A DNA stretch of 64,000 bases from Verrucomicrobiia bacterium (lineage in GTDB: Bacteria > Verrucomicrobiota > Verrucomicrobiia > Palsa-1439), in NCBI GenBank assembly GCA_041495285.1, contig JBGQCJ010000005.1:15374-79373 (forward strand). Reading direction: 5' to 3'. Made by a program: the position numbers and the translations under genes. The notes under the pieces are model-generated. The model saw nothing but the letters and a program-made list of their open reading frames with translations, was not told the DNA's origin and did not search any database. This document shows positions 8,318 to 64,000 of this stretch, piece by piece (the stretch's first letter is position 1; the number at the start of each line of letters is the position of its first letter).

Positions 8318-8878
8318 ATGCCCACAAAAGTAAAGAAGGAACGCGATTATCGTCCGCACGCTGAAGTACTGTTCAGCGCGCGAATGCTCATTAAAATGGG
8401 TGAGGTGCACCGTGAGAATTGTAGTCATCTGTGGCTGGCGTCGTTGGTCCTAACAGCATTCGCTTTCGAAGGTTATCTTAATTATCTCGGTAGAAGACTG
8501 TTCAGAACGTGGGAGGATTTTGAACGCAAATTGAATTGGGATATGAAGGCTTCTCTAATTGCTGACCGAATCGACCTCACGCTGGACAGAGGTAAGCCAC
8601 CGCTCCAAACCATTTGTGAGTTATTCCACTTTCGGAACAATGTCGCACATCTGAAACCTCCGCTGAAGCCCCTCGTGGAAGAATACGAAACTGATAACCT
8701 TGATCTCTCGACTTTTTACAGACCGATCGAATCCAAAGTCGAAAAATTCTGCACGGAAGCAAATGCAAAGCTCTGCATTGAGGATGTCCAAAAAATGATG
8801 TCGATTTTTTATGAGCATGCCAAAATTGGCGGAGAGCCAACTATTCTAGGTAGTCAATCTGGCACCGCGAGCGGATAG
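8318..8878 (+). CDS. Hypothetical protein with a HEPN-like Rx4H motif, in a low-GC islet
   Basis: 186-aa ORF, visibly lower GC than its flanks. Motif FRNNVAH (R-x4-H), as in HEPN/HepT/Abi-type RNase domains. No other recognisable domain. Confidence 0.4.
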   Translation: MPTKVKKERDYRPHAEVLFSARMLIKMGEVHRENCSHLWLASLVLTAFAFEGYLNYLGRRLFRTWEDFERKLNWDMKASLIADRIDLTLDRGKPPLQTICELFHFRNNVAHLKPPLKPLVEEYETDNLDLSTFYRPIESKVEKFCTEANAKLCIEDVQKMMSIFYEHAKIGGEPTILGSQSGTASG

Positions 8879-10474: not shown

Positions 10475-11460
10475 GCCGCCGCCAGCCAGCCGGCTGCGTC
10501 TTTTGCCCAGTACGTCAGGATGATATCGGCACCGGCGCGCTTGAAGCCGGTCAGAATCTCCAGCACCACCTGCCGCTCATCAAGCCAGCCGTTTTGCGCG
10601 GCGGCCTTGATCATCGCGTATTCGCCGCTGACGTTGTACACGGCAACCGGATAATGAAACTTGTCCTTCACGCGCCAGATCAAGTCCTGATAGCCGAGAG
10701 CCGGCTTCACCATCACGATGTCCGCGCCTTCCTTGATGTCGAGCGCCACTTCGCGCAATGCTTCGTCGCCGTTGGCGTAATCCATTTGATACGTCTTCCG
10801 GTCGCCAAACCGCGGCGGTGACTCGGCGGCTTCCCGGAACGGACCGTAAAACGCCGACGCAAACTTCGCCGCGTAACTCATAATCGGTGTGTCAGCAAAC
10901 CAGGTCTCATCCAACGTCGCGCGGATGGCGGCCACCCGGCCATCCATCATGTCGCTCGGCGCAACGATGTCCGCACCGGCCTCGGCGTGGGCCAACGCCG
11001 CTTTCGAGAGCAAGCCGAGCGTGGCGTCGTTGTCGATCCGGTACTCGCGTCCCGTTTTGCGCACGATGCCGCAATGACCGTGGCTCATGTATTCGCACAG
11101 GCACACGTCGGTGATGACGACCAATTCCGGCAACGCTTTCTTCAGCGCGCGCACCGCTTTCGGCACGATACCGTTCGCCGCGTACGCGCCGGACGCCTTT
11201 TCGTCCTTCTTGTCCGGTATCCCGAACAGAATCACCGCCGGTACGCCGAGTTTCATGAGCGTACCGGCTTCCTTCACGGCTTCATCCACGGAAAGCTGGA
11301 ACTGGCCCGGCATCGAACCGATGGGGCGACGTACGCGCGTGCCTTCGCGCACGAACAGCGGCATGACGAGTTGCCGGACGGACAACTCCGTTTCGCGCAC
11401 GAGCGCACGCAAGGCCGGGTTCTGCCGCAGACGACGGGAGCGATAAATGGGGAAACGCAT
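10471..11460 (-). CDS. hemB: Porphobilinogen synthase (delta-aminolevulinic acid dehydratase)
   Basis: 329 aa. Conserved over full length ([32 protein letters not shown]..., active-site region ...[15 protein letters not shown]...). Confidence 0.9.
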
Positions 11461-50319: not shown

Positions 50320-52992
50320 CTAACTCGGCTTCGGCTTTTGCCCGAACAGATACATCTGCGGCGGCTCTTGAATTTCTGACTTCTGACTCCTGTCTCCTGA
50401 CTTCTGCTTCCGCTCCGCCAGCTTCGGCTGCCCTTCGGCAGACAGTTCGGCTTCTTCGAGGTTGGCGAGGACTTCCTTCGCGCGGGTGATGACTTCTTTC
50501 GGCAAGCCGGCAAGACGGGCGACCTGGATGCCGTAGCTCTTGTCGGTGCCGCCGGGGAGAATCTTGTGGAGGAAAATCACTTGATCGTGCCATTCGCGGA
50601 CGGCGACGTTGTAGTTCTTCACGCGCGGCAACGTCGCGGCAAGTTCGGTCAACTCGTGATAGTGCGTCGCGAACAGCGTTTTCGCGCCGACTGCGTTGTG
50701 GAGGTGTTCGGCCACCGCCCACGCGATGCTCAAGCCGTCGAACGTGCTCGTGCCGCGTCCAATCTCATCGAGTACAACCAGACTCTTCGGCGTCGCGTTG
50801 TTCAAGATGTTCGCCGTCTCGTTCATCTCGACCATGAACGTGCTTTGCCCGCGCGCCAAATCGTCGTTCGCGCCGACGCGCGTGAAGATGCGATCCACCA
50901 AACCGACAGTCGCGCTCTTTGCCGGGATGAACGAGCCGACCTGCGCCATCAACACCAGCAACGCAACTTGCCGGATATACGTGCTCTTGCCCGCCATGTT
51001 CGGGCCGGTAATGATGAGAATCTGTTGCTCCGTGTTATCGAGCAGCGTGTCGTTGGGCACGAACCGCTCCTCGATGAGGGTTTGTTCCAATACCGGATGC
51101 CGTCCGTCCGTAATCTCGATTCGATCGGCATCGTTCACAGCCGGTCGGCAATAATTCTGGTGCCGCGCCAGCTCTGCGAATCCCGCCAGCACATCGAGCG
51201 CGGCAATCGCGGACGCTGATTGCTGGACAGCAACGGACTCATCCAGCACCGCATCGCGCACTTGCTGGAAGATTTCGTACTCCAGCGCCGCCGCGCGTTC
51301 CTCGGCCCCGAGAATCCTGCCCTCCATCTCCTTCAACTCGGGCGTGTAAAAACGTTCGCCACCGGCAATGGTCTGCTTGCGGATGTAGTCGCTCGGCACT
51401 TTGTCGAGATTGGCCTTCGTCACTTCGATGTAATAGCCGAATACGGAATTGAACCGTACCTTGAGTGACGCAATGCCGGTCCGCTCGATCTCACGTTGCT
51501 GGAGCGCAGCAATCCATTCCTTGCCTTCGCGCGAGCCGCCCCGGAGTTCGTCGAGTTCCGCGCTGTAGCCGGCCTTGATGATTCCGCCTTCTTTCAACGC
51601 CAGCGGCGGCGCATCTTCAATGGCGCGCGCAACGAGATCGACGACGTCCGGAAGCTCGGTGATTTGCGAGACGAGAATTTGTAGGAGCGGCCTGCCGGCC
51701 GCGACCGGGTTGGCGACCGGTGGTTCGGAGGATCGCGGCCGGGAGGCCGCTCCTACGACGGCACCAAGTGCCTTCTTCAACTTCGGCAATGCCGCTAGAG
51801 ATTCCTTGAGCGCGACGAGATCACGAGCGTTACCGGAGCCGACGCTTAACCGGCCAAGCGTGCGTTCCATGTCGCGCACGTCGCGCAACCGTTCGCGAAA
51901 CTCGGCCAGCACGTGTGGCGCTTCACAAAACGACGCTATTACGCCTTGACGCTCCACGATCTTCTCCACGTCCTTCAACGGATGCGTCAGCCATTCGCGG
52001 AGCAACCGCGCGCCCATCGGTGTGAGCGTGCGATCCATGCAACCAATGAGTGTGTGTTTCCGGTCGGTGCGCGGTGATTCGAGCAATTCGAGATTTCGCT
52101 GCGTCACGGCGTCGAGCACCATGAAGTCAGCGATGCTGTACACTTGCAGCCCGTGGATGTGCGCGGTGTTGCGCCGGAGCGATTGTGTGAGGTAGTGCAA
52201 CGCGGCACCCGCCGCGCCGATGCCAACGGTCAGATTGGCGGCACCGAAGCCGTCGAGCGATTGCGTCTTGAAGTGGTCCCGCAGCGTGAAGAACGCCGTC
52301 TCGCGCTCGAACGTCCAACCGTCGTGCGGCGTCGCACTGATGCCGAGGGCTTTCGCTTCGTCGAACCATTCCGCCGGTACGATGATCTCTGCCGGTCGGA
52401 CGCGCGCCAATTCGTTTTGGAGTTGTTCGGCGGTCACCAACTCCGTGACCTTAAAGTCGCCGGTCGTGAGATCAACCAGCGCGAGGCCGAAGCGAGCCGA
52501 TTCGGGACGAGGTGTAGTAGCGCCTGTCTCAGGCGCTGAGGACATTGATTTGCCGCTGGGGACAGCGGCTACTACACCGGCAACCGGACAAATCGCCGCG
52601 AGGAAGTTGTTGCGTTCGGCGTGGAGGATATGCGCGTCGAAGTGCGTGCCGGGGCTGAGGATTTGCGTGACGTCGCGGTTGACGAGCTTGCCGGGTTTGG
52701 CTTCCTCGAGCTGATCGCACACGGCAACTTTGCGGCCGGCGCGAAGGATTTTGCCGATGTAGGTCTCGGCGGCGTGGTGCGGGATGCCGCACATCGGGAC
52801 GCCGTTGCGGTGTGTGAGCGCGAGATTGAGTAGTTGCGAGCCGGTCTTGGCGTCGTCGAAGAACATTTCGTAGAAATCGCCGAGCCGAAAGAGGAGCAGC
52901 GCGTCCGGTGGGATTTCGTGTTTGATGCGCCGGTACTGCTGCATCATTGGAGACAGTCCGCTGGCCGGCTTCTGGGTTTTGTCACTCGCCAT
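50320..52992 (-). CDS. mutS: DNA mismatch repair protein MutS
   Basis: 890 aa. N-terminal mismatch-binding MMQQY..IK...LLFRLGDFYEMF. Walker A ITGPNMAGKSTYIRQ. Walker B/ABC region. Confidence 0.9.
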   Translation of the reverse strand: MASDKTQKPASGLSPMMQQYRRIKHEIPPDALLLFRLGDFYEMFFDDAKTGSQLLNLALTHRNGVPMCGIPHHAAETYIGKILRAGRKVAVCDQLEEAKPGKLVNRDVTQILSPGTHFDAHILHAERNNFLAAICPVAGVVAAVPSGKSMSSAPETGATTPRPESARFGLALVDLTTGDFKVTELVTAEQLQNELARVRPAEIIVPAEWFDEAKALGISATPHDGWTFERETAFFTLRDHFKTQSLDGFGAANLTVGIGAAGAALHYLTQSLRRNTAHIHGLQVYSIADFMVLDAVTQRNLELLESPRTDRKHTLIGCMDRTLTPMGARLLREWLTHPLKDVEKIVERQGVIASFCEAPHVLAEFRERLRDVRDMERTLGRLSVGSGNARDLVALKESLAALPKLKKALGAVVGAASRPRSSEPPVANPVAAGRPLLQILVSQITELPDVVDLVARAIEDAPPLALKEGGIIKAGYSAELDELRGGSREGKEWIAALQQREIERTGIASLKVRFNSVFGYYIEVTKANLDKVPSDYIRKQTIAGGERFYTPELKEMEGRILGAEERAAALEYEIFQQVRDAVLDESVAVQQSASAIAALDVLAGFAELARHQNYCRPAVNDADRIEITDGRHPVLEQTLIEERFVPNDTLLDNTEQQILIITGPNMAGKSTYIRQVALLVLMAQVGSFIPAKSATVGLVDRIFTRVGANDDLARGQSTFMVEMNETANILNNATPKSLVVLDEIGRGTSTFDGLSIAWAVAEHLHNAVGAKTLFATHYHELTELAATLPRVKNYNVAVREWHDQVIFLHKILPGGTDKSYGIQVARLAGLPKEVITRAKEVLANLEEAELSAEGQPKLAERKQKSGDRSQKSEIQEPPQMYLFGQKPKPS

Positions 52993-53376: not shown

Positions 53377-53775
53377 TCAGCGTGCGAAAAGCTCTTTGAG
53401 CGCGGTGCGAAGTTGTTCCATCTCGAAGGGTTTTTCGAGCAGCGTGTTGCCGGTGCGATAAATGAAGTCGGCCAGCCCGGCGCGGCGGCCGGGATTGCCG
53501 GTGATGAAGATGAATTTCTCGGCCAGATAGGGATATTGCCGGATGACCTCGTTATAGAGCGACTCGCCGTCCACGCGGGGCATCATCAGGTCGCAGATCA
53601 CCGCCTCGTAATCCGCGCCGCGCAACATATCCATGGCTTCCATCCCGTTGGCGGCGATGTCCGCGATGCAATTTTCGTAGGTGAGCACTTCGGAAAGCAA
53701 TTCGGCAAGCTGGTAGTCGTCCTCGACCACCAACACGCGATGGACGTACTCGACGGGACGCTTGGACTCGGTCAC
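53377..53775 (-). CDS. Stand-alone response-regulator receiver domain (CheY-like)
   Basis: VLVVEDDYQLAELLSEVL...AVICDLMMPRVDG...FIFITG... ; GTG start. Confidence 0.75.
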   Translation of the reverse strand: MTESKRPVEYVHRVLVVEDDYQLAELLSEVLTYENCIADIAANGMEAMDMLRGADYEAVICDLMMPRVDGESLYNEVIRQYPYLAEKFIFITGNPGRRAGLADFIYRTGNTLLEKPFEMEQLRTALKELFAR

Positions 53776-53796: not shown

Positions 53797-53840
53797 TGGA
53801 GCCGGCGATCAGACTTGAACTGATAACCTGCTGATTACAA
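53797..53840 (-). other. tRNA 3'-half-like sequence (T-arm, acceptor 3' strand, CCA), candidate att/direct-repeat remnant at the element boundary
   Basis: Minus strand reads ATCAG-TTCAAGT-CTGAT-CGCCGGC-T-CCA: a perfect 5-bp T-stem, T-loop of TTCRANT type, 7-nt acceptor strand, discriminator, CCA. No matching 5' acceptor, D-arm or anticodon arm upstream. Confidence 0.35.
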
Positions 53841-53950
53841 ATTGCACTAGGTGTGTTTCAGCCCGTGTCAGCTTGCGCTGCATTGTGCACGCCATCATGC
53901 TCCACTGCAAGGGCTTTTCTGTTTCATGCTCGCTGGTGAAACACCGCGAA

Positions 53951-55213
53951 TCATCCCGTCACCGGAAGCGCCGTGTGACTAGCCTTCGCGTCTACTTCGA
54001 CCGCCTTCCCGGTCACTGTCAGCCGAATTCGCCGGGCCTGCGCCAACAGATGGTCGGGACGCACGTCACCGTAGGTGTGCGCGATCAGGGCGGGGCCGGA
54101 CTTATCACCAAGCAGCGCCGCAATCTCGCTGTCTGTCAGCCCGGATTCTCGCGCTTGCGTGACGTAGAAACTTCGCAACCCGTGCGGGGTGACGTGCCCG
54201 ATCTTCAATTTCCGGCAAGCCGCCGTCAGCCGATGCCGGACGGCAGCCGCATCGCGGGGTTTGCTGGGGTCAAAGGGTGACGCGAACAGCAACGGGCTTG
54301 TTGCCCGTTCCTGCATAGCGCTCAGCAAGGCTTCCAGTTCAGGCGTGATTGCCACCCACGGCGTCACGCCCTTCTTCTCGCGTATCACATTCACAAGTCC
54401 TTCGGCCAGATTCACCATGCCCCACCGCAGCGGCAGCGCCTCGCCAATCCGCAAGCCGCTGTAGGCGAGAAATGCCACAAGGTCAGCAATCGCAATTTCG
54501 TTACGCCGGCGCAGCCAGCCGATGATTGCCTGCAAGCCTTCGGGTGTCGGCGCAACTTCCCGGCAGTGCCGCACGTCGGCGGCGCTAGTGTACGTGGTGC
54601 GGTCGCGCATCGGATTGGATTTCAACAGGTCGCGCCGGACGGCAAAGCGCAACACGTTGCCGAAGACGCCAAGCTCTAGGTCAACCGCGCGGTCGCCGCC
54701 CGTCGTGCGTTTGGTCCTTTCGTGCCCGCGCAGCTTATAGGTGACAACGTAACCGCCGCTCTTGCGCCAGGCGTGGTAACGGTCGCAATCGGCGTTCGTC
54801 ACCGACGCGGCAGGGTGCTCGCCGAAGTAGGCCAGCAATGGGCGCAGATGCCGCCGCTCGTTGTAGATCGTGCGGGGCAATTTCCGCCCCTTCGTCTTGC
54901 GTGGGTAGCCTGCCGTTTCGTATTCCGTTGCCAGTTCGCGCACCGTCACGCGCCCGCGCTGCAAGACAACGCCTTCGGGTTCAATCCCGTTTCGTATCAG
55001 CCAATGGTCACGCTTCCACTTCCGCAACCATTTGCGGGCGTCACTAGCATTGTCGGTTTCAGTGCTCTTCCAAGTCAACTTGCGATTGTCGCGCACGCGG
55101 GCGTAAATCTTCTTCCCTTCATAACGGAAGTGCTTCCCGCTTTCGTCCACGCCCTCGCGGACTTGCCGCGCCAAGCACGGGCCAATTATCTCGAAGCGTG
55201 TTTTGCTGGTCAT
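53951..55213 (-). CDS. Tyrosine-type site-specific integrase
   Basis: C-terminal catalytic domain with R...HGLRSFYVTQ...(H-x-x-R)...Y (LIAHTYG) tetrad. N-terminal SAM-like/arm-binding region. Confidence 0.85.
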   Translation of the reverse strand: MTSKTRFEIIGPCLARQVREGVDESGKHFRYEGKKIYARVRDNRKLTWKSTETDNASDARKWLRKWKRDHWLIRNGIEPEGVVLQRGRVTVRELATEYETAGYPRKTKGRKLPRTIYNERRHLRPLLAYFGEHPAASVTNADCDRYHAWRKSGGYVVTYKLRGHERTKRTTGGDRAVDLELGVFGNVLRFAVRRDLLKSNPMRDRTTYTSAADVRHCREVAPTPEGLQAIIGWLRRRNEIAIADLVAFLAYSGLRIGEALPLRWGMVNLAEGLVNVIREKKGVTPWVAITPELEALLSAMQERATSPLLFASPFDPSKPRDAAAVRHRLTAACRKLKIGHVTPHGLRSFYVTQARESGLTDSEIAALLGDKSGPALIAHTYGDVRPDHLLAQARRIRLTVTGKAVEVDAKASHTALPVTG

Positions 55214-55374
55214 GGCAGTTTCTCCAAGTAACGGGCGATCAGTTGGTCAATCACCCAACTTCTTTGCCGGTCCTTCTTGTCGCAGTACGTCTCCATCTTC
55301 GCTGCTGATTCGGGCGACACCGTTATGGACCATTTCACAGTTACGCCTTTGGGACTATTTGTTGGTCTGACCAT
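55210..55374 (-). CDS. Possible small ribbon-helix-helix (CopG-like) protein, stop overlapping the integrase start
   Basis: 54-aa ORF ...VKWSITVSPESAAKMETYCDKKDRQRSWVIDQLIARYLEKLP* has a beta-strand then two helices, typical of RHH. ATGA overlap with int. Its 5' end overlaps the recombinase 3' end by about 20 nt. Confidence 0.3.
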   Translation of the reverse strand: MVRPTNSPKGVTVKWSITVSPESAAKMETYCDKKDRQRSWVIDQLIARYLEKLP

Positions 55375-56095
55375 TGCGTATCTCCTTCTTGGTTGTGGCG
55401 CTCAAGGGATTTGTCCGCGCCAGGATTCTTAGAACTTGGATCGGTGTCCATTCAGTATGCCCGCGCTTCGTTGTCGCGCCGATCTTTTGCAGCTTGGCTG
55501 CGATCTTACGCAACGAAAAGCCGCGCTGACGCTGCTTACGGACAATGCCAATTACGCGTTGCTCGGTGTCGTTAGGCACCAGTTTTCCATCCACCGCCAC
55601 AAATCCAAACGGCACATCACCGCCGAGCTTCTCGCTGCGCTGCCGCTTGTATTGCATCGCACGCAGTGTTTTCTCGCTGATTTCCTTTCGGTAAACTTCA
55701 GCGAGGAGTGCCTTCAGCGTCAAATCCATCGTGCCGCTCACGGTCTTGTTTTCAACGAAGCCTTTATCCAGCGTGAAGAGCCGCGCCTTCGCCGGGCCGC
55801 AGACATCCTCCAAAAAAATCAGGGTATCCTTCTGCGAGCGGGACAATCGCGACAAGTCCGCAACAACGACGATGTTTGCCGCCTTCGCTTTCACCATCGC
55901 AACGAGCGCAGCAAATCCAGGCCGCTTGCTGGCGGGTTTTCCGCCACTGACGCCTTCGTCGCGCAACACCGCAATCAGTTCCCAGCTTTGCCGCGCGGCC
56001 TCGGCACAAATCAGCGCTTCTTGCCGTTGCAAGCTCTCGCCGTCTTTGACCTGCTCCTCTGTGCTTACGCGAATGTAACCGACTGACTTTATCAT
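55355..56095 (-). CDS. Serine recombinase (resolvase/invertase family) with C-terminal HTH
   Basis: SVGYIRVSTEEQ...GESLQRQ has the catalytic Ser motif. About 246 aa with C-terminal DNA-binding region. Confidence 0.85.
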   Translation of the reverse strand: MIKSVGYIRVSTEEQVKDGESLQRQEALICAEAARQSWELIAVLRDEGVSGGKPASKRPGFAALVAMVKAKAANIVVVADLSRLSRSQKDTLIFLEDVCGPAKARLFTLDKGFVENKTVSGTMDLTLKALLAEVYRKEISEKTLRAMQYKRQRSEKLGGDVPFGFVAVDGKLVPNDTEQRVIGIVRKQRQRGFSLRKIAAKLQKIGATTKRGHTEWTPIQVLRILARTNPLSATTKKEIRNGQTNK

Positions 56096-56199
56096 CTTGA
56101 CCCCTAATGAGGGGTTTTATACTACTAATCCTACCAAATGGCAAGCGGATGCTGTTACAGATGGTGCCAAGTGTTACGGATCTCACCGCAAATTCCACG

Positions 56200-56523
56200 T
56201 CAGTGGGCGCTTCCGCCGCAGGTCGGCAAGGCTTGGGATTCATCGGTTACTCCTCCTTCTCCGTTTCGATGACCGCACATCGCCGGTGTCTCAGTGGCCG
56301 GTGCAGTGGGCTCAGTCAAATCGCACTCGCAGTTTGCTTCGGTGTGCCGTTCGAGGAATCGCAGCCAATCGGATTCCTTTACGCGGACAATGCCGCCGAC
56401 CCGCACAACGCGCAAACCGCGCTCCTTTCGCCAACGATAAACAGTAGCGCGACTTGCCTTGCCAACCTCGCGGATCTCATCCAATGTGTAGAGTCTTTCA
56501 ATTGGTTCCGGGTTTGTGGTCAT
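56200..56523 (-). CDS. AlpA/excisionase-like HTH DNA-binding protein
   Basis: LYTLDEIREVGKASRATVYRWRKERGLRVVRVGGIVRVKESDWLRFLE is an HTH_17/Xis-like domain. The C-terminal 40 aa of the ORF are low-complexity and may not be translated. Confidence 0.55.
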   Translation of the reverse strand: MTTNPEPIERLYTLDEIREVGKASRATVYRWRKERGLRVVRVGGIVRVKESDWLRFLERHTEANCECDLTEPTAPATETPAMCGHRNGEGGVTDESQALPTCGGSAH

Positions 56524-56670
56524 TGTTGTCCTCGCATTGGCGCCTTCGATCGCATTTTTTACCGCTCAGTATCGTTGCCACCAGTAAAGACGACTGAAAC
56601 AGCTTTGTTGCCGGGGGGTCACCCTTTGCCAGCGGGTAGTGCCGTGCAGGATTTGAAGCGGGTGCGGTGG

Positions 56671-57505
56671 TCATGGCTTCGTCGAGCCGGCCAGCAGTTT
56701 CACCAGCCGGGTGCGTTCCTTCGTCTCCAATTGCCTTACCCGGGCCAACGCCTCCAAGTCCATGCGTTGCTCGACCTCGCTTCGGATCCGATGCCGCAAC
56801 ACGTCCACCGGGAGCGCGTCCAGTTCCACGCAGCGGTCGCCATGCTCGGCGATAAAAGCGGCGCGGCGCGTATCGGTGCGTTTGGTCGGGTCGGGCGGCA
56901 AGTGGTAGCGCTCGATGTCCTCGGCGGTCAGGGCGCACTTGACAATTTCTGGACAAAGCCTCGAAAAACGCCAGCCGCTCGCGCAGACTGCGCACCATGT
57001 CCTCGCCGCTGGGGTCGAAGTCGCCGAAGTAGAGCACGCTCGCATTGTCGCCACCGCCATAGCGATCAGCGGCATTGTGGATACTCGCCCAACCATCGTA
57101 ACCACGGCCCACGTTGAGCGTGACGCCATACGATTCGAGCACGTCCTCGAAAATGCCGGACAGTGCGTCCTTCTCGAGCCAGACCTCGACGTAACCCGGC
57201 TGGCTTGCCCACACGTCGCGACGGTATGCCTGACGCGCGGTTTCGCTGAAGTCAGCTAGGTCAGCCCACATGCTGACGGTTCGGGGTCGGCGCAACCGGT
57301 CTTCGATCCAAGCCCACGGGATCGTTCCGTCCTGGCGGGCGCGCACGAGCACATTACTGACTGCCTGATATTGGCTCCGGTTGTTTTCTATGACTTGTCT
57401 GGAAACGAGTTGGTAGTACACCTGCCGCACCGTCATCGGATGGTGTTCAGACAAAACCTCGACGGCGACTTCCAGCAACTGCTGCGTTTTCGCATGCCTA
57501 CCCAT
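56671..57505 (-). pseudogene. Topo VI-A/Spo11-like 'mini-A' protein (winged-helix with YY, toprim with DxD), interrupted by a frameshift
   Basis: AAGGAG SD then ATG 57505. MTVRQVYYQLV (R-x-V-Y-Y, as in the Spo11/TopVIA catalytic Tyr region), YVEVWLEKDALSGIF (toprim E), LYFGDFDPSGEDM (toprim DxDPxG). The frame breaks near a T5 run at about 56960-56975. A second frame continues ...PEIVKCALTAEDIERYHL...LAGSTKP to stop 56671. Confidence 0.5.
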
Positions 57506-57897
57506 CAGACCGCAGTCTCCTTGCCGGCAAGCCGTAGGACATACGCGCAAGAGTCACGGCCCTTGTCGTTGCCGCTCTGTTCACTAGTGCTCGATCTCAC
57601 ACCCGGTAAAGACGACAGCGGCCCATATTTGCACCGAGATCGTGAAAGATTTCTTTGGTGGCCCGACATCTTCCGGCTGCTGTCCGCGATGCTGTTCAAC
57701 GAATCGGGCGTCATGGTGAAATCGGAGGCAGTTGCTGCGCATGCGGGGTGCCGTCACTGTGTCCTACTTAACCGCATCCTCTGGCGAGAAGCTGGCCGAC
57801 GGTAAGCAAAAGGCCGTGGCGAGCTACCCATCGAGTTCACGGCCGCAGGACTTATCAAATCAAGTCGTGTTTCTGTCGATCCTTGGCCATCCACGCC

Positions 57898-58509
57898 TCA
57901 GTTCAGTTGATTCGGCCACTCGGGACAGAAGAAAGGCGTCAGAAACCTTGCTTTGTCAAACGGAACCCGAAACGGCAAGTTCGCCCCAGCGAATGGGACG
58001 TTGAACACTCGTCGTTCGGACTGCATGGTTTCAACCCAAAACTGTCCGTCCTCTATGTGCATGATACAGACGCACTCGCTGAGGAACTCCTGACAAAAGC
58101 GTTCCGGTGAGGCGAACTTCGTCTCGACTTCGAGCAAATCGGGAGCACCATCAGCCCTTAAGAGTCCTTCCACTTTTTTCAGCCCTCCCGCCTCCTGTAG
58201 ATCCCACAGCCTCTCCAAGAGCTCGTCACTTGCGGCAAAAAAACTTGTCGCGTCGGGAACCAGATGAGCGATCGTGTCGGGCTGACAGAACCGCAAGAAC
58301 TCCACGGCTCTCCGTCTTCTTGGTTCTTCATGGTTGTAGACGGCGGATACGATCCAGATTTGACCACGGTGTGGGGCTGTCCGTGCGGTCTTTCTGTATG
58401 GTCTTGGCGCGAGATTTTGCAGCACCAGCCGAAACTCCTCGGCTAATCGCATGTGAACTGTTCCGAGCTTGATCACTTTATCACTGTTATGGCGTGTGCT
58501 TCTTAACAT
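57898..58509 (-). CDS. Hypothetical protein (element cargo)
   Basis: 203-aa ORF with slightly lower GC. No recognisable motif; the start could be at internal Met-20. Confidence 0.4.
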   Translation of the reverse strand: MLRSTRHNSDKVIKLGTVHMRLAEEFRLVLQNLAPRPYRKTARTAPHRGQIWIVSAVYNHEEPRRRRAVEFLRFCQPDTIAHLVPDATSFFAASDELLERLWDLQEAGGLKKVEGLLRADGAPDLLEVETKFASPERFCQEFLSECVCIMHIEDGQFWVETMQSERRVFNVPFAGANLPFRVPFDKARFLTPFFCPEWPNQLN

Positions 58510-58530
58510 TGGTTACTCTCCTATATGGAT

Positions 58531-59472
58531 CTAGTTGTTCTTTCTAATGGACTCCACTCCCTGCTTCTCATCGAGTAGGTGACGGCTGATGAAGTCAACG
58601 AGGCTGTTGAGCGTCCTCCGAACCTTCTTGGACAGTGGCGCGCCCTTGGCGACGAGATCGGCAATGCGCTTGACGGTGGTCTCGATCATGTTCACCTCTG
58701 TCTCCAGCGTAGACAACGGCGTGGCGTCCCGTACATCCGCCTCCGTGGGCGTAGCCGCGCTCAACTCGCGGCGCTCGCACTCGCCCGCCTTGCGATGCAG
58801 CTCCACCAGAGGACGCAGTGCCTCCGCCCACCCGTGTAGCAACACGGTGTCCTTGCAGCCCTCAAGGTCCCAGTAGGTCGGGAGTTTGTCAGTGAACCGC
58901 CGGATGACTACCGCCCCTGAGACCTTGTCCACGCCTCCGTCGATGTCTTCGACCTTCAGGCGGGTCGGCGTCCCGTAATCCTTGAGTTCCCAGTTGTAGA
59001 TCACCTTGCCCCGCTTGATGGACCGGCGCAACGCAGCGCGCGTCAACTTGTGCTTCTCCGCCTCGTTGAGCCAACGATCTTGCTCCTCGGGCTCAAGGTG
59101 CGCGACCTCGCGGTGATGCTCCCACGACAGTTTGTCGCGCCGGCGCGACGGATCCACGCTCCCCGCTACCCAGTTTAAGTCGCGCAAAGTGGCCTGCCGA
59201 TATTCCATCGCCGCTGGAAGTTTTGAGTACTCCTCGCCCCATTCATGCTCGCCGTACCGTAACCAATCGCCGATCCACCACCTCAACGCGCCGCCGGCAC
59301 GGCAGAGCTTCGCACCAATGTCCTGCCACTCCTTTTCGGTGATCTTTCTGGTGACGAGCAACGAGGTCTTGGTGAACTCGATCCCAGGCAGGATCAAACC
59401 ACTCTCGAGTTTCATCGGCTCATTCCCGCAGTTTACCGCGGTGGTTTCCGCATTCTGTAACTTGTTCTTCAT
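58531..59472 (-). CDS. Hypothetical protein with W-W-I-G-D-W-L / L-S-W-E-H-H motif (DUF3102-like, phage/plasmid-associated)
   Basis: 313 aa. ALRWWIGDWLRYGEHEWGEEY ... LSWEHHREVAHL resembles DUF3102-type proteins; this is recalled pattern only. Confidence 0.4.
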   Translation of the reverse strand: MKNKLQNAETTAVNCGNEPMKLESGLILPGIEFTKTSLLVTRKITEKEWQDIGAKLCRAGGALRWWIGDWLRYGEHEWGEEYSKLPAAMEYRQATLRDLNWVAGSVDPSRRRDKLSWEHHREVAHLEPEEQDRWLNEAEKHKLTRAALRRSIKRGKVIYNWELKDYGTPTRLKVEDIDGGVDKVSGAVVIRRFTDKLPTYWDLEGCKDTVLLHGWAEALRPLVELHRKAGECERRELSAATPTEADVRDATPLSTLETEVNMIETTVKRIADLVAKGAPLSKKVRRTLNSLVDFISRHLLDEKQGVESIRKNN

Positions 59473-59906
59473 ATTCGTTCCTCCTTTTCACCCTGTAAAG
59501 ACGCCGCGCGGGGGGTCTGTTGCAGAGGGGTGCGGCGGTTTTCTTTGATAGCCCGATCCCGTGCGGCTCCCGTTTCGCCTCGGTCGGAGACACCTCGTCG
59601 CTCTTGACCTGCTCGAACAGCTCCGGCTTCTCCGCCGCCCACCCCGCCAGGAACTTGGCCTGGCCACTATCCTTCTTGCTGATGTCGAGTTTGTCGAGCG
59701 TGGGCGGCGCGTCTGGTTGGGGTTCCTTCCGGGAACTCCGAGTGCCTCCGCCCTTGCGTCCCCGCGCTCCAGCTTGCTTCGGCTTCTTCCTCAGGAACTC
59801 GCCTATGACCCGCACGCCTCGATCTCGATGGCGTGGGCCTACCTTGGACTTCTTAGCCGCCTTACTGCCGAGGACATCGGGATGATTTGACAAAAGCATC
59901 GGTAAA

Positions 59907-61172
59907 TTGATAGCTCTCGACCTGCTGGAAACAGCGGGCATGGCACGGAAGCGATCCAAACTGACGATGAGCAGGACGCAACTGACTGAAGTGCGGCAAC
60001 GGCTGCGTCAGGCGGAGCAACAAGAGCGTGAGGCGCGTAAGCGGGGTGAAACGAGTGTGGCGAACGTCGCATGGGAACATGTGCAACGTCTGAAGGCTGT
60101 GCTAATGGCCACGAGCGGTAAACACACTTTGGACGAGATCGCCTTAGAGTGTGGGTGTGCGCGCTCGACGGCGCACATCTGGCTGGAAAAGTTCACTCGC
60201 GTAGGGCTGCCCGCCCTTTTGCTCAGCAGCGCGACGGGCAGACCGAGCCGCATCGCCGATCCGACCGTGCAGGCGGAACTGCGGGCGGGCTTGCGGGAAG
60301 GCGAGTTGTACACGGCCGACGAAGTGGTAGCGTGGTTGCGCTTGACTTACGGCATCGAGTGCCCGGCTCAATCTTTGTACTACTGGATGAGAAAACTCGA
60401 CCCAGCGAGTCTGCCGGTTGACCAGACCATACTCGGTGACGCGATAGAGGTCATGGCTCCGTGGCTCGACCAGTGTGTGGATGCGGTCATCTCAGACTTT
60501 CCCGCCGGGTTGACGAACGCCCCGCACGACAAGTCGCCGCCCCTCGAGCGCCTCTGGCCGCTGCTTCACCGGCTCAGTCGGGGCGTCGTCATTACGACTG
60601 CGAGCCAACCGTTCGCCTCGCTGTGTGTCGCCAGCAATCTGAAGAATTTCAGGCATGACTGGGTAATGCGGAAGAACCGCGGGTCGAACTTCGCCTGCAC
60701 GGTGCGCCAGCCGATGCGGGACCATGAGCATGTCTTGGTTTTCTGCGCCAAAACCAATTGGACATTTAACCCGCAACGCGAGCAACGCCGAGGCAGTGGC
60801 ATGCACATGGCGGGACGAATGACGACCTGGATGTCGCGGAGCACCAACTACCGAGAGAGCGGCGACGAGTTCAAGCCTCGCACCGGCATCGTCACCGAAG
60901 ATCGCGTGCCTTCATCCGTGCAGGACATCCAGGTCGAGACCGGTCTTCACCCCCAGCAGAAGAGTTTGAATTTTTTTCGCTATTTGGTGCGGACGTACAG
61001 TAATCCGGGAGACATTATTCTCGACCCATACTGCGGTTCAGCTACGACCTGCCGCGCCGCGCAACTTGAAGGCCGACACTTCGTAGGAATAGAGATTGAC
61101 CCCGAGCGTTTCCGTGTTGCCCAGAAACGTGTGGCTGAACCATTCCTGCCTGACTATTCCGGACGCAGATAA
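59907..61172 (+). CDS. DNA methyltransferase (N6-adenine / N4-cytosine, PF01555-like, permuted beta-class) with N-terminal HTH
   Basis: C-terminal motif I IILDPYCGSATTCRAAQLEGRHFVGIEID. Upstream candidate motif IV region DAVISDFPAG (degenerate DPPY). N-terminal ALECGCARSTAHIWLEKF is HTH-like. No adjacent restriction endonuclease gene. Confidence 0.65.
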   Translation: MIALDLLETAGMARKRSKLTMSRTQLTEVRQRLRQAEQQEREARKRGETSVANVAWEHVQRLKAVLMATSGKHTLDEIALECGCARSTAHIWLEKFTRVGLPALLLSSATGRPSRIADPTVQAELRAGLREGELYTADEVVAWLRLTYGIECPAQSLYYWMRKLDPASLPVDQTILGDAIEVMAPWLDQCVDAVISDFPAGLTNAPHDKSPPLERLWPLLHRLSRGVVITTASQPFASLCVASNLKNFRHDWVMRKNRGSNFACTVRQPMRDHEHVLVFCAKTNWTFNPQREQRRGSGMHMAGRMTTWMSRSTNYRESGDEFKPRTGIVTEDRVPSSVQDIQVETGLHPQQKSLNFFRYLVRTYSNPGDIILDPYCGSATTCRAAQLEGRHFVGIEIDPERFRVAQKRVAEPFLPDYSGRR

Positions 61173-61536
61173 TCGGTCGCGAGGCGCTCTCAGGCCGGGC
61201 TCGACTGTCTCAAAAAAAGCTGCGGTGCCAAGCGAAACCCAACTGTTGACGCGCCGCGGGTGTCCACGGCGGTATTCAGTGGGTCACGCGTCGTGGCGGT
61301 CTCCCGTTGCCGTCGCCGCTCGCCCCTCAGCCTGCCAGCGCGCAGTCGTGCTCTTTTCGGGCAGCCACTCCGAAACAAAACGCAGCAGCCAAGCCTTGAC
61401 CTCTGCCTTGTGCGTAGTCAGGTCGGCGCGTTCCTCGTCAGATACTAGCGCCGGCCAGACGCAGAGCTTGTCCCGATCACGGTCGTACCAGACCGACACG
61501 CCGCGCTCGCGGAGCTTGCCGATCAGAAAGCCAGCG

Positions 61537-63384
61537 TCAAATTTCGAGGGTTTCAGCATAGGCTTTTGCGGTTGGTTGCGGGGTTTGCGGGCTTTCATCC
61601 AAGGATTTGGCAAAAGTCCCTATGTAATCTTCTTGTGAGGATTTTCCTGAAATCGTTGCGGCAAACCCCGCAAACCCCGCAGTAGATCCGCTGCGGATGC
61701 GAAAGTTAGCAATACCGTTCCGATTCTTCTCTCGTGTTGCGTCAAAGAGGCTTTCTATATGAAGCCAGAGCGATGTTAGTCGTTTGCCCAATCGTTTCGA
61801 CGACCAGAGCCGCTTGCCATGATTTCCCTTGGCATCATCTCCGAAGTCGGCGTCGTATTTGGCAAACTTGTCCAACAGTTCCGCCGCCGTCCCGGCAAAG
61901 CCGTCAGGCTCGTTCGTCATCATGTCCAGTAAAGCCTTGCCGACGGGGTCGTTTTCCAAACAGAACCGGGACTTGTCAGCTTCGGCGGCTGACATGGCGG
62001 CGATAGCTTCGACTTCGGCGTTCATTGCCCTGCCAAGTTTGATCGCCAGCGTGCCGAAGTCCGGATGCCGCAAGTTGAGTCCCTTCGGCGTGGGCAGTTC
62101 ATCCGCCAGTGCCGCCGACAACGTCCGGGCAACCCACGATAGCCCGGCGGAGCGAGCCGCCGAAATTTCGGCGAGCAGCGCAGCATCATCTGTTTCGCCC
62201 ATTCGTCTATTCATGCGAACAAGTAAGAGCCTGTCCGCTGTTGCAGAGTCAGAGGCGAACAAGGGGTTAGCCGTGGTGACGGCAAGCCATGCCTTCGGCA
62301 GTAACTTGGTTTGTTGATCGTTGGTGTAGAGCTGCCGCTCTTGTTTCCCGCCGCCCGTTGCCGCCGCAGACAACGCTGACGGCAACCATTTAATCCAATT
62401 ATCTACGTTGTCGGGGATCACCAAGCCGCCGCCATTGATCGCGACCCAAAAGTCGTGTTGGCTCTTGTCCGTTTTGTCCAGTTCGGCCGGTTCGCTGGGC
62501 AGTCCAAACAGTCGGGCAATGCCGATGGCTGTCTTGGTCTTACCGCTGCGTATTTCGCCCGAAAAAATGATCGGCGGTTTACAGTTCGGATTTGTCGGCA
62601 AGCTCGTTACCCATAGCTTCAACAGCAACTTCCCGTGCGGATCGGCATAAGCGGCGTCCCGAAATAACCGGCAGGACTCAAACGGATCTTGCGGCTCGGT
62701 CAATTCCCATGTTGGCAATGTCATGCCTACTGGGAACAAAACACCGTCAGTCCCGTTGTCCACCGCCTCGACGTTGGACGCCGTGATCTTCGCACTCTGC
62801 CCGTCACCGTTGGATAGGTAAATCGCCTTGTCTCGGCTCGCCCAATAGGTTTCTGGGATGATGCCCGTGCCGTGCAACGCCGCAACCTCGACAGCGGCGG
62901 CAATGTACTGGAAAACCGGGTTGCCCATGTTGATCGCCGTAAGTTGAGCAACGTCGGATAGAAACTCGTCTGATTGGACTCGCAGCAACCGCTTGGTTTG
63001 ACTGTCGAAAAACATGGCGGTTGCAAAGTCCCGGTGTTGGGAATGAAAGTAGAACAGCCCCCGCTGGTTCAGAAATTCGACGGCAACATTTGCAACGGCT
63101 TCGTGCTTTTCCGTTGCTGGCAGGCGGGTTGACAGAATGCCGACAATCGCCGCCCGTAGCTCCTCGACGTTGGTAGTCGCCCCGGTGTTGATAGTCAGTC
63201 GAGCTTCACGCTTGCGGCTGTGTGCGTCAGGTTCAAAGTGTTTGCGAAACTCTCGCCAGCGCTTACCGCTGCAACCATCATGGTGACATTTGAAGCCAAG
63301 TCTGCCATCTGCGTTTTCAAAAACTGCAACCTCACCATGAACTCCATGCTCCGGGTTAAACGGGCACGATGCTAATTCGTACAC
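61537..63384 (-). CDS. Phage/plasmid P4-type primase-helicase (zinc-binding N-domain plus SF3-like P-loop)
   Basis: CPFNPEHGVHGEVAVFENADGRLGFKCHHDGC is a zinc-binding motif. Walker A-like FSGEIRSGKTKTAIGIA. Overall about 615 aa. GTG start; upstream frame open without ATG. Confidence 0.7.
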   Translation of the reverse strand: MYELASCPFNPEHGVHGEVAVFENADGRLGFKCHHDGCSGKRWREFRKHFEPDAHSRKREARLTINTGATTNVEELRAAIVGILSTRLPATEKHEAVANVAVEFLNQRGLFYFHSQHRDFATAMFFDSQTKRLLRVQSDEFLSDVAQLTAINMGNPVFQYIAAAVEVAALHGTGIIPETYWASRDKAIYLSNGDGQSAKITASNVEAVDNGTDGVLFPVGMTLPTWELTEPQDPFESCRLFRDAAYADPHGKLLLKLWVTSLPTNPNCKPPIIFSGEIRSGKTKTAIGIARLFGLPSEPAELDKTDKSQHDFWVAINGGGLVIPDNVDNWIKWLPSALSAAATGGGKQERQLYTNDQQTKLLPKAWLAVTTANPLFASDSATADRLLLVRMNRRMGETDDAALLAEISAARSAGLSWVARTLSAALADELPTPKGLNLRHPDFGTLAIKLGRAMNAEVEAIAAMSAAEADKSRFCLENDPVGKALLDMMTNEPDGFAGTAAELLDKFAKYDADFGDDAKGNHGKRLWSSKRLGKRLTSLWLHIESLFDATREKNRNGIANFRIRSGSTAGFAGFAATISGKSSQEDYIGTFAKSLDESPQTPQPTAKAYAETLEI

Positions 63385-63467
63385 GGTCCCGCCGCCCTTA
63401 ACCTTTGTGTTTTTGATCTCGATGTTGTGCCGCCTAAAAAATCCAGAAAGGTCAAAGTTTTCACTGA

Positions 63468-64000
63468 CGGGCCGAATCTATCTGCATTTTTGGCCCTAGC
63501 ACAATTAGCCCGCCGGCGATGGGCTTGTGCTGGGAACACGGCGTCGCCGTCAATTTCCTCTCTGAGAACGGTTACTTCCAAGCGCGCGTGACGGGCGTCG
63601 CCGATACCAGCGTGACATTGCGCCGCACCCAATTCCGCGCCGCTGATGATCCCGTGAAATCCGCCGCCATTGCCCGTCAGATCGTCGCGGGCAAAATCCA
63701 GAACGCGCGCAACAGTCTTTTGCGCGCGGGGCGCGAGACCGGGAACGCCGACGAACAAGCCAGGGTCGCCGCCGCTACCGACGCGCTCGCCCGCAGTCTG
63801 CGCGAGTTGGAGACGATCCGCGACCTCGAAGCTGTGCGCGGCAGCGAAGGCATAGCGGCGCAGATTTACTTTGCCGTGTTCACATTGTTGCTCAAGCAAC
63901 AGCGCGACGAATTTGTGTTTACCACGCGCACCCGTCGTCCGCCGCGCGACCGGATCAATTGCCTGCTCTCCTTTCTCTACGCCTTGGTGCGGCATGATTG
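63468..64000 (+). CDS. cas1: CRISPR-associated Cas1 integrase, 5'-truncated and running off the window
   Basis: Collinear with type I-C Cas1 from about residue 60: ESICIFGPSTISPPAMGLCWEHGVAVNFLSENGYFQARVTG...VTLRRTQF...AVRGSEGIAAQIYFAVFTLLLKQ...FTTRTRRPPRDRINCLLSFLYALV. An in-frame stop at 63465-63467 sits immediately upstream. None of the three upstream frames encodes the N-terminal domain. Confidence 0.85.

Follow-up and report, generated by a model that had tools for sequence, protein, structure and literature searches.

An integrative-element remnant fused to a truncated cas1 gene

We analyzed a 64,000-nt stretch of contig JBGQCJ010000005.1 from a Verrucomicrobiia bacterium (GenBank assembly GCA_041495285.1), hereafter referred to as the window, near the right end of which a block of mobile-element genes lies between an ordinary host locus and a remnant of a type I-C cas1 gene. 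The host genes to the left of the block, both on the minus strand, are mutS (50320-52992) and then a response regulator (53377-53775). Cas1 relatives and flanking genes alike point to Verrucomicrobiia, with Limisphaerales-like affinity. The GC content of the block (0.56-0.64) is that of the rest of the window, as the initial annotation had noted. That annotation had described a textbook small integrative element or phage satellite that was inserted beside cas1 and apparently truncated it. The features on which the present reading rests are:

53797..53842, minus strand: attR-type remnant, 46 nt copied from the 3' part of tRNA-Thr(UGU), beginning in the anticodon loop and ending with CCA, without the 5' half of the tRNA
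53951..55213, minus strand: tyrosine integrase (PF00589), 420 aa, apparently intact, with its 3' end toward the tRNA fragment
55210..55374, minus strand: 54-aa open reading frame (ORF) with a ribbon-helix-helix (RHH)-like pattern and a 4-nt overlap with int, a conserved integrase partner
56671..57505, minus strand: Topo IIB Mini-A pseudogene with a frameshift near an A5 run (56964-56968)
61537..63456, minus strand: 5'-truncated primase-helicase gene that has kept the D5/SaPI-like SF3 helicase part and a Zn-finger linker and has lost ~265 N-terminal codons
63457..63472, no strand: rearrangement junction, the 16-nt interval in which primase-helicase homology stops and cas1 homology starts
63473..64000 and on to 64382, plus strand: type I-C cas1 remnant (Cas1c homology) from codon 59/60, first ATG at 63519
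64396-64686, downstream of the cas1 remnant: cas2 (TIGR01573), seen in contigs that overlap the window end
from 64872, beyond the window, to the end of the JGI contig: CRISPR array of at least 22 repeats (L001, L083 and L085)

A single breakpoint truncates two divergently transcribed genes, the primase-helicase gene of the element and cas1. The initial annotation had placed the end of the element about 80 bp away from the cas1 break; instead, one junction at 63457-63472 cuts both genes. No repeat, insertion sequence (IS) end or att-like sequence was found there, and a promoter and terminator scan was equally negative. Because the cut runs through the element's own primase-helicase gene, we regard this right junction as the product of a secondary rearrangement in which both partners were damaged. 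The Logan assembly has exactly the same junction, its contig L001 showing no differences from the window over 10,188 shared nt (Mini-A frameshift included), and the junction is also present in a 77-kb JGI metagenome contig with one mismatch, its position not located, in 10,482 shared nt.

The primase-helicase ORF as annotated encodes 615 aa from a GTG start; its closest homologues (54-64% identical) measure 946-963 aa, and the alignment begins at homologue residue ~294-300. Upstream of the annotated GTG the frame remains open and homologous ('FDLSGFF'; FDLSGFFRRHNIEIK versus FDLQDFFQRHGIAVK) as far as 63456, which corresponds to homologue residue ~270. The protein has a D5-like SF3 helicase fold with a Walker A motif, and its fold is closest to those of SaPI5 Pri-Rep and D5 helicases. 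By sequence it matched nothing in Pfam, NCBIfam or PHROG, including the D5_N/Pox_D5-type and P4-family primase models, and the D5-like helicase part of a full-length homologue (P0242) likewise had no match in these three libraries. The gene designated a P4-type primase in the initial annotation is thus one without a family match by sequence and with a truncated 5' end. No primase catalytic domain was found in the window polypeptide. DxD and SGNGGH motifs occur in the first 245 aa of the full-length homologues, and a fold search with a moderate-confidence model of this part (pLDDT 64.7) returned mainly AEP/Prim-Pol structures (LigD-pol 8.2, CAPP Prim-Pol 7.9, PriS 6.7). Pfam and PDB profile searches with the same domain were negative or spurious, the AEP matches coming from the fold search only. 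Judging from this model, the catalytic part of the primase is probably missing from the window copy. In L119, the closest full-length relative, the primase is preceded by at least two small genes (an HTH_3 regulator and a 64-aa ORF) that the window also lacks. Among viral contigs the primase gave one weak partial match; the phage databases contained two records that matched the helicase protein, both in its Zn-finger linker only, and plasmid databases yielded nothing.

Homologues P0249-P0360 join the same D5-like helicase module to varied N-terminal domains (Prim-Pol, Toprim_2/3, zf-CHC2, VirE_N and DnaB-type). This is domain shuffling in a helicase family whose helicase part is missed by Pfam and NCBIfam models.

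The gene identified as Topo VI-A-like in the initial annotation proved to be broken as well. The N- and C-terminal halves of Mini-A lie in two frames, the change occurring between the DxD motif and the VELDAL box, and no uninterrupted frame was found. Only the repaired reading (277 aa) matches phrog_6247 'DNA topoisomerase' in a single stretch (E 1.8e-63), and its motifs RQVYY, EKD...DFDPSG and VELDAL agree with the published definition of Mini-A, which comprises ~300 aa, a 5Y-CAP RxxY/FY motif, Toprim E and DxDxxG residues and an xWELDAL box (Takahashi et al. 2019, PMC7671362). The family assignment therefore holds, but the gene is a frameshifted one.

The CRISPR locus retains cas2 and an array

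Counted from the first ATG, the cas1 remnant encodes 287 aa, and 58-59 N-terminal codons are gone. Homology to the full-length cas1 of L087 (89.4% nt, 95% aa) begins exactly at 63473; that of L002, also full-length, is 84% identical at the protein level, and 84% was the best Cas1 match in the searched genome collection. PF01867 matches the remnant at profile positions 50-201, and TIGR03640 (Cas1c) scores 389.6 bits against a cut-off of 385 over model positions 55-338 of 340. The earlier observation that about the first 60 codons are missing is thus confirmed, and the cas2 gene and CRISPR array that it had suggested looking for beyond 64 kb are both there. The array consists of 22 identical 37-nt repeats ending ATTGAAAC and 21 unique spacers of 33-35 nt. 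The uniform repeats suggest that the rearrangement is recent. Compared with the window, element included, and with all fetched loci, the 21 spacers gave only chance-level matches of 13-17 nt (E >= 0.09), and the repeat had no exact match in IMG/VR viral contigs.

The JGI contig terminates inside the array, as the NCBI contig appears to do. At the JGI end (L085 12894-12904, equivalent to window positions 66412-66422), the 11 nt that follow the last repeat are the start of spacer 17, which suggests either that the assembly looped within the array or that a spacer is duplicated, and makes the true array length uncertain.

In L002 and L087, the relatives with full-length cas1, cas4 and cas3 lie directly upstream, and L002 has putative effector genes further upstream. 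The window contains neither a full-length cas1 nor adjacent cas3, cas5c, cas8c, cas7 or cas4, and a tblastn search of the 64 kb with the cas1-upstream ORFs of L002 recovered Cas1 residues 60-234 only and no other cas gene. None of 80 related cas1 loci carries element genes or MutS, and none lies within 10 kb of a tRNA-Thr. A casposon was considered and rejected, given that PolB is lacking and that Cas1 is typical of type I-C and followed by cas2 and an array.

The left end is a displaced tRNA-Thr fragment

The CCA-terminated, tRNA-3'-like sequence reported at the left end is an exact copy of part of a tRNA gene. Positions 53797-53842 are identical over 46 nt to the intact tRNA-Thr(TGT) genes of L097 and L103 and diverge from them upstream; the fragment is unique in the window, where no match is expected by chance, and ARAGORN found no intact tRNA at this place. 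The counterparts that the initial annotation led one to look for were missing. Searches for a second att copy (a 23-mer sought exactly and with 3 mismatches, plus a repeat search of 52.5-64 kb) returned chance-level repeats only. There is no direct repeat of an intact tRNA and a 3' copy, and neither the window nor the 2.4 kb that follow contain a tRNA-Thr. Nor did the tRNA half have an exact match in viral contigs.

The neighboring integrase was correctly recognized. It matches PF00589 (E 1.5e-13, 51.3 bits, cut-off 27.1), and the R...HxxR...Y residues can be seen in its translation. We found 473 homologues at E<=1e-20 and no match among viral contigs. Homologues adjoin tRNA 3' fragments in L084, L088, L092, L094, L099, L109 and L114. 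The overlapping 54-aa ORF recurs with the same length, position and overlap directly upstream of related integrases (L088-L093, 63-70% aa identity), so that it is evidently a real gene, as had been proposed. Its strand-helix-helix pattern was read by eye, no hidden Markov model of Pfam or PHROGs matched it, and it is a probable recombination-directionality or regulatory factor.

An exact 45-mer scan of JGI metagenomes recovered 21 loci, comprising 17 intact tRNA-Thr genes and 4 fragments. All four fragment-only loci adjoin a homologue of the window integrase in the same orientation, and two of these integrases are cut down to ~92 codons. In both cases (L094 10723-10998 and L109 8506-8781) the 3' fragment of tRNA-Thr is accompanied by the C-terminal codons only. 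At the mutS-proximal tRNA-Thr site of peat and soil Verrucomicrobia, decayed copies of such elements seem to be common.

Several relatives with MutS 72-79% identical retain the order MutS, response regulator, tRNA-Thr(UGU), and no integrase of this family stands beside it in L097, L103, L104 or L112. In L097 and L103 the far flank of the tRNA holds ordinary host genes (YjeF-type, ADH, glycosidase), and on this ground we take both to be empty sites. A complete arrangement is seen in L088, whose integrase is 73% identical: an intact tRNA-Thr (2874-2949) is followed by ~8.5 kb of cargo, the 54-aa ORF, int and the 3' fragment (~11390-11437). Taken together, the L088 architecture, the fragment and the empty sites establish that the block is of integrative-element origin and that 53797-53842 is its displaced-fragment end; in this respect the view that the genes belong to a tRNA-targeting integrative element and not to the core genome stands. 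Going by the architecture of this integrase family, one would expect the intact tRNA at the other end of the element, on the right of the 615-aa ORF.

The tRNA-Thr gene is an integration hotspot, with different elements in different relatives. Beside sister integrases 65-71% identical to that of the window we found 3' fragments of a tRNA-Lys(CTT)-like gene (L084 2085-2140, L092 11300-11345); target specificity switches within this integrase family.

Order of events and alternative explanations

The best reading, to which we assign a probability of roughly 0.6, is integration at tRNA-Thr followed by one deletion that fused the element to the cas locus. We infer the following order of events. 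An element of ~10 kb or more would have recombined, by means of its tyrosine integrase and small RHH partner, into the 3' part of tRNA-Thr(UGU) beside the response-regulator and mutS genes, giving the order usual for this integrase family: intact tRNA, cargo, RHH, int and the displaced 46-nt fragment. The cargo would have been a replication and maintenance module with an AEP-primase/D5-like-helicase fusion, Topo Mini-A, an AlpA-type helix-turn-helix (HTH) protein, a small serine recombinase, an orphan methyltransferase and an LmbU-like regulator. Later, one illegitimate recombination would have joined primase-helicase codon ~265-270 to codon 59/60 of the divergent type I-C cas1. The deletion would have taken the catalytic domain of the primase, the genes in front of the primase gene, and the other att site with the reconstituted tRNA, along with the intervening DNA including cas4, and cas3, cas5, cas8c and cas7 too if these lay upstream as in relatives. 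The Mini-A frameshift would have been acquired after the rearrangement. What is left of the CRISPR locus would be the cas1 remnant, cas2 and the array, with no interference genes nearby, and spacer acquisition should cease. Lacking attL, the element should be unable to excise, and its replication is unlikely with the primase domain missing and Mini-A broken.

Several points weigh against this history. tRNA-Thr(UGU) is normally single-copy, needed to read ACA and normally indispensable, and a simple deletion would also take the reconstituted gene; there must therefore be a second copy, or a tRNA beyond the array, or else the genes were rearranged by inversion or translocation. What lies beyond tRNA-Thr in relatives is not a cas locus, and a tRNA-Thr within 10 kb is seen at none of the 80 related cas1 loci, so that the original distance between element and cas genes is not fixed. 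The three assemblies that agree on the junction may share one set of reads. Finally, the loss of Cas1 function is a prediction: the N-terminal beta-sandwich domain of Cas1 forms the dimer and Cas2 contacts, and a Cas1 without most of it would be unlikely to integrate spacers.

An inversion or translocation, in which both genes were broken, nothing was lost and the reciprocal junction survives elsewhere, is the leading alternative, albeit an unlikely one. At that junction the 5' part of the primase gene, AEP domain included, together with attL and tRNA-Thr would meet cas1 codons 1-58, cas4 and the effector genes in head-to-head orientation. Such an event would account for the retention of the essential tRNA, and two divergent truncated genes are the geometry expected of an inversion between oppositely oriented genes. 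The first base of Logan contig L001 is window position 53813; we read this as a unitig broken at the inner edge of the 46-nt repeat because the sample contained a second copy of the tRNA half. Such a copy could equally come from co-occurring relatives, however, considering the 17 intact genes with an identical 3' half across metagenomes, and the 64-kb window contains no reciprocal junction, further cas gene or tRNA-Thr.

A composite island appears rather improbable. Here the cas1 remnant, cas2 and the array would belong to a mobile region of greater size, as part of a tandem or nested element or as cargo captured by the element, with the intact tRNA-Thr past the array; the array may then work for the element through a host type I-C effector encoded elsewhere. 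This would correspond to the second alternative of the initial annotation, an element that itself carries a degenerate cas1. The integrase family's architecture does put an intact tRNA somewhere to the right, the 22 identical repeats and 21 unique spacers form an array that has not degenerated, and the tRNA-Thr hotspot receives differing elements in relatives. The joint, however, cuts the element's own replication gene and is thus not an evolved cargo boundary. The lack of an exact match of the repeat in viral contigs, the absence of spacers against the window and its element, and the 80 related cas1 loci without element genes or tRNA-Thr nearby speak against it as well.

Still less probable is that the junction is an autoimmunity scar. 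In that case the type I-C system would have taken up a spacer against the integrated element next to it, long-range degradation by Cas3 starting at that protospacer would have been mended by end joining, and in the survivor a single deletion would have taken both the target (the primase 5' region and beyond) and the interference genes. None of the 21 visible spacers is self-targeting, and CRISPR as the cause of the junction is speculative; if true, the locus would be a natural record of a conflict between CRISPR and an island that ended in mutual destruction.

The view first proposed, that an intact element or satellite entered the cas operon by site-specific insertion and has its natural end at cas1, is very improbable: the gene content is like that of small int-alpA-primase elements and the cas1 break does adjoin the block, but the left flank is a conserved, normal tRNA-Thr locus and not the other part of cas1, the primase-helicase is cut at the joint, the right end has no att duplication and Mini-A is frameshifted. 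An assembly chimera of two unrelated contigs at 63457-63472 deserves hardly more than a mention, for although the contig is metagenome-assembled and the assemblies may have reads in common, the same junction recurs in the Logan and JGI contigs and no repeat at the joint could mislead an assembler.

Other genes of the block

The remaining genes of the block are the following:

55355..56095, minus strand: small serine recombinase, resolvase-type, 246 aa (PF00239, E 7e-29)
56200..56523, minus strand: HTH_17 (AlpA/Xis-type) DNA-binding protein (PF12728, 30.9 bits, cut-off 27)
57898..58509, minus strand: 203-aa ORF without assigned function, called in the JGI and Logan assemblies
58531..59472, minus strand: 313-aa ORF with an LmbU-like regulator domain (NF038070, E 6.2e-31, 107.6 bits, below the cut-off of 125)
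59420..59959, minus strand: ORF of ~160-179 aa without assigned function, its start uncertain (called as 159 and 173 aa in two assemblies)
59907..61172, plus strand: orphan N6/N4 DNA methyltransferase with an N-terminal transposase-type winged HTH (PF01555, E 3.9e-21)
61284..61613, minus strand: ORF of 104-109 aa downstream of and overlapping the helicase gene, called in both assemblies

The serine recombinase, the AlpA/Xis-type HTH protein and the orphan methyltransferase had all been named in the initial annotation and were recovered by profile searches. An orthologue of the serine recombinase, 80% identical, occupies the same place in the L092/L093 element, and the HTH_17 ORF also matches phrog_66 'excisionase and transcriptional regulator' (E 1.7e-7). 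The genes for the integrase, the RHH-like ORF, the serine recombinase and the HTH protein look intact. In the methyltransferase the PF01555 match spans profile positions 68-221 only; HTH_29/HTH_23 and phrog_67 (E 4.4e-44) match too, and no restriction gene was recognized nearby. At residues ~190-200, in place of the catalytic DPPY of beta-class enzymes, we read 'VISDFPAG' (DFPA, by eye), and the enzyme, which is joined to a transposase HTH of the IS630 type, is possibly atypical or without activity. The 203-aa ORF and the ORF at 59420-59959 had no match in Pfam, PHROGs or NCBIfam, and that at 61284-61613 matched no family in the profile libraries, PHROGs included.

A 43-nt imperfect inverted repeat (61577-61681, 74% complementary) with short tandem units GCAAACCCC/TTGCGGGCT lies where the helicase gene ends (3') and the ~105-aa ORF begins, and is a possible regulatory or origin-like site. 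An Rfam scan of 52-64 kb gave no matches. Elsewhere in the window, a local GC dip at 8318-8878 (0.49 versus ~0.59) coincides with a plus-strand 186-aa ORF without assigned function, and a milder second dip occurs at 40-41 kb.

Significance

This is ordinary genome decay and not a new kind of system, and current understanding is unchanged. The main value lies in a corrected annotation, the apparent intact element beside cas1 being a grounded remnant: the 'primase' of 615 aa and the 'Cas1' of 287 aa reported by annotation pipelines are both truncation products of one event, and an element with a cut primase-helicase, a frameshifted Mini-A and no second att is no textbook case. The locus also offers a natural example of CRISPR-Cas loss beside mobile elements and shows that in soil and peat Verrucomicrobia the tRNA-Thr(UGU) gene next to mutS is a hotspot of integration. 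Two protein families are added. One consists of integrases accompanied by a conserved 54-aa RHH-like protein; the other is a widespread group of primase-helicases, which combine an AEP-like N-terminal domain with a D5-like helicase and are left uncovered by the current models of Pfam and NCBIfam.

Comparison with known systems

The element shares with tRNA-targeting islands (P4-like and SaPI/PICI-like int-alpA-primase islands) a tyrosine integrase, an AlpA/Xis-type HTH, a primase-helicase and a displaced tRNA 3' fragment. It differs from them in that int adjoins the displaced fragment and not the intact tRNA (as seen in L088), that the replication protein falls outside the P4/D5 sequence models although the fold is alike, and that the window copy is a remnant without attL and the primase domain. 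No capsid, terminase, packaging or redirection genes were recognized with Pfam, PHROGs and NCBIfam, three ORFs being without assigned function. We therefore do not class the element as a phage satellite (P4-like, PICI, cf-PICI or PLE), as no helper-hijacking genes are visible.

Topo IIB Mini-A proteins have been reported in viral or proviral contexts (PMC7671362). The window gene resembles those of viruses and integrated elements in size, in the RxxYY, Toprim E plus DxDxxG and (V/W)ELDAL motifs and in its mobile-element home; in contrast to them, it is frameshifted and resides in an element without recognizable virion genes.

With the type I-C (Dvulg) adaptation module the CRISPR locus has in common a Cas1c match above cut-off, Cas2, 37-nt repeats and 33-35-nt spacers; the N-terminus of its Cas1 is gone, however, and cas4, cas3 and the putative effector genes are missing beside cas1. 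Chromosomal targeting is known to select cas mutations and large island deletions (Vercoe et al. 2013, PMC3630108). As in such degraded CRISPR loci and remodeled islands, a cas operon remnant here stands beside an integrated island. Unlike the published case, no self-targeting spacer is seen among the 21 visible ones, and a single junction harms both the island and the cas operon.

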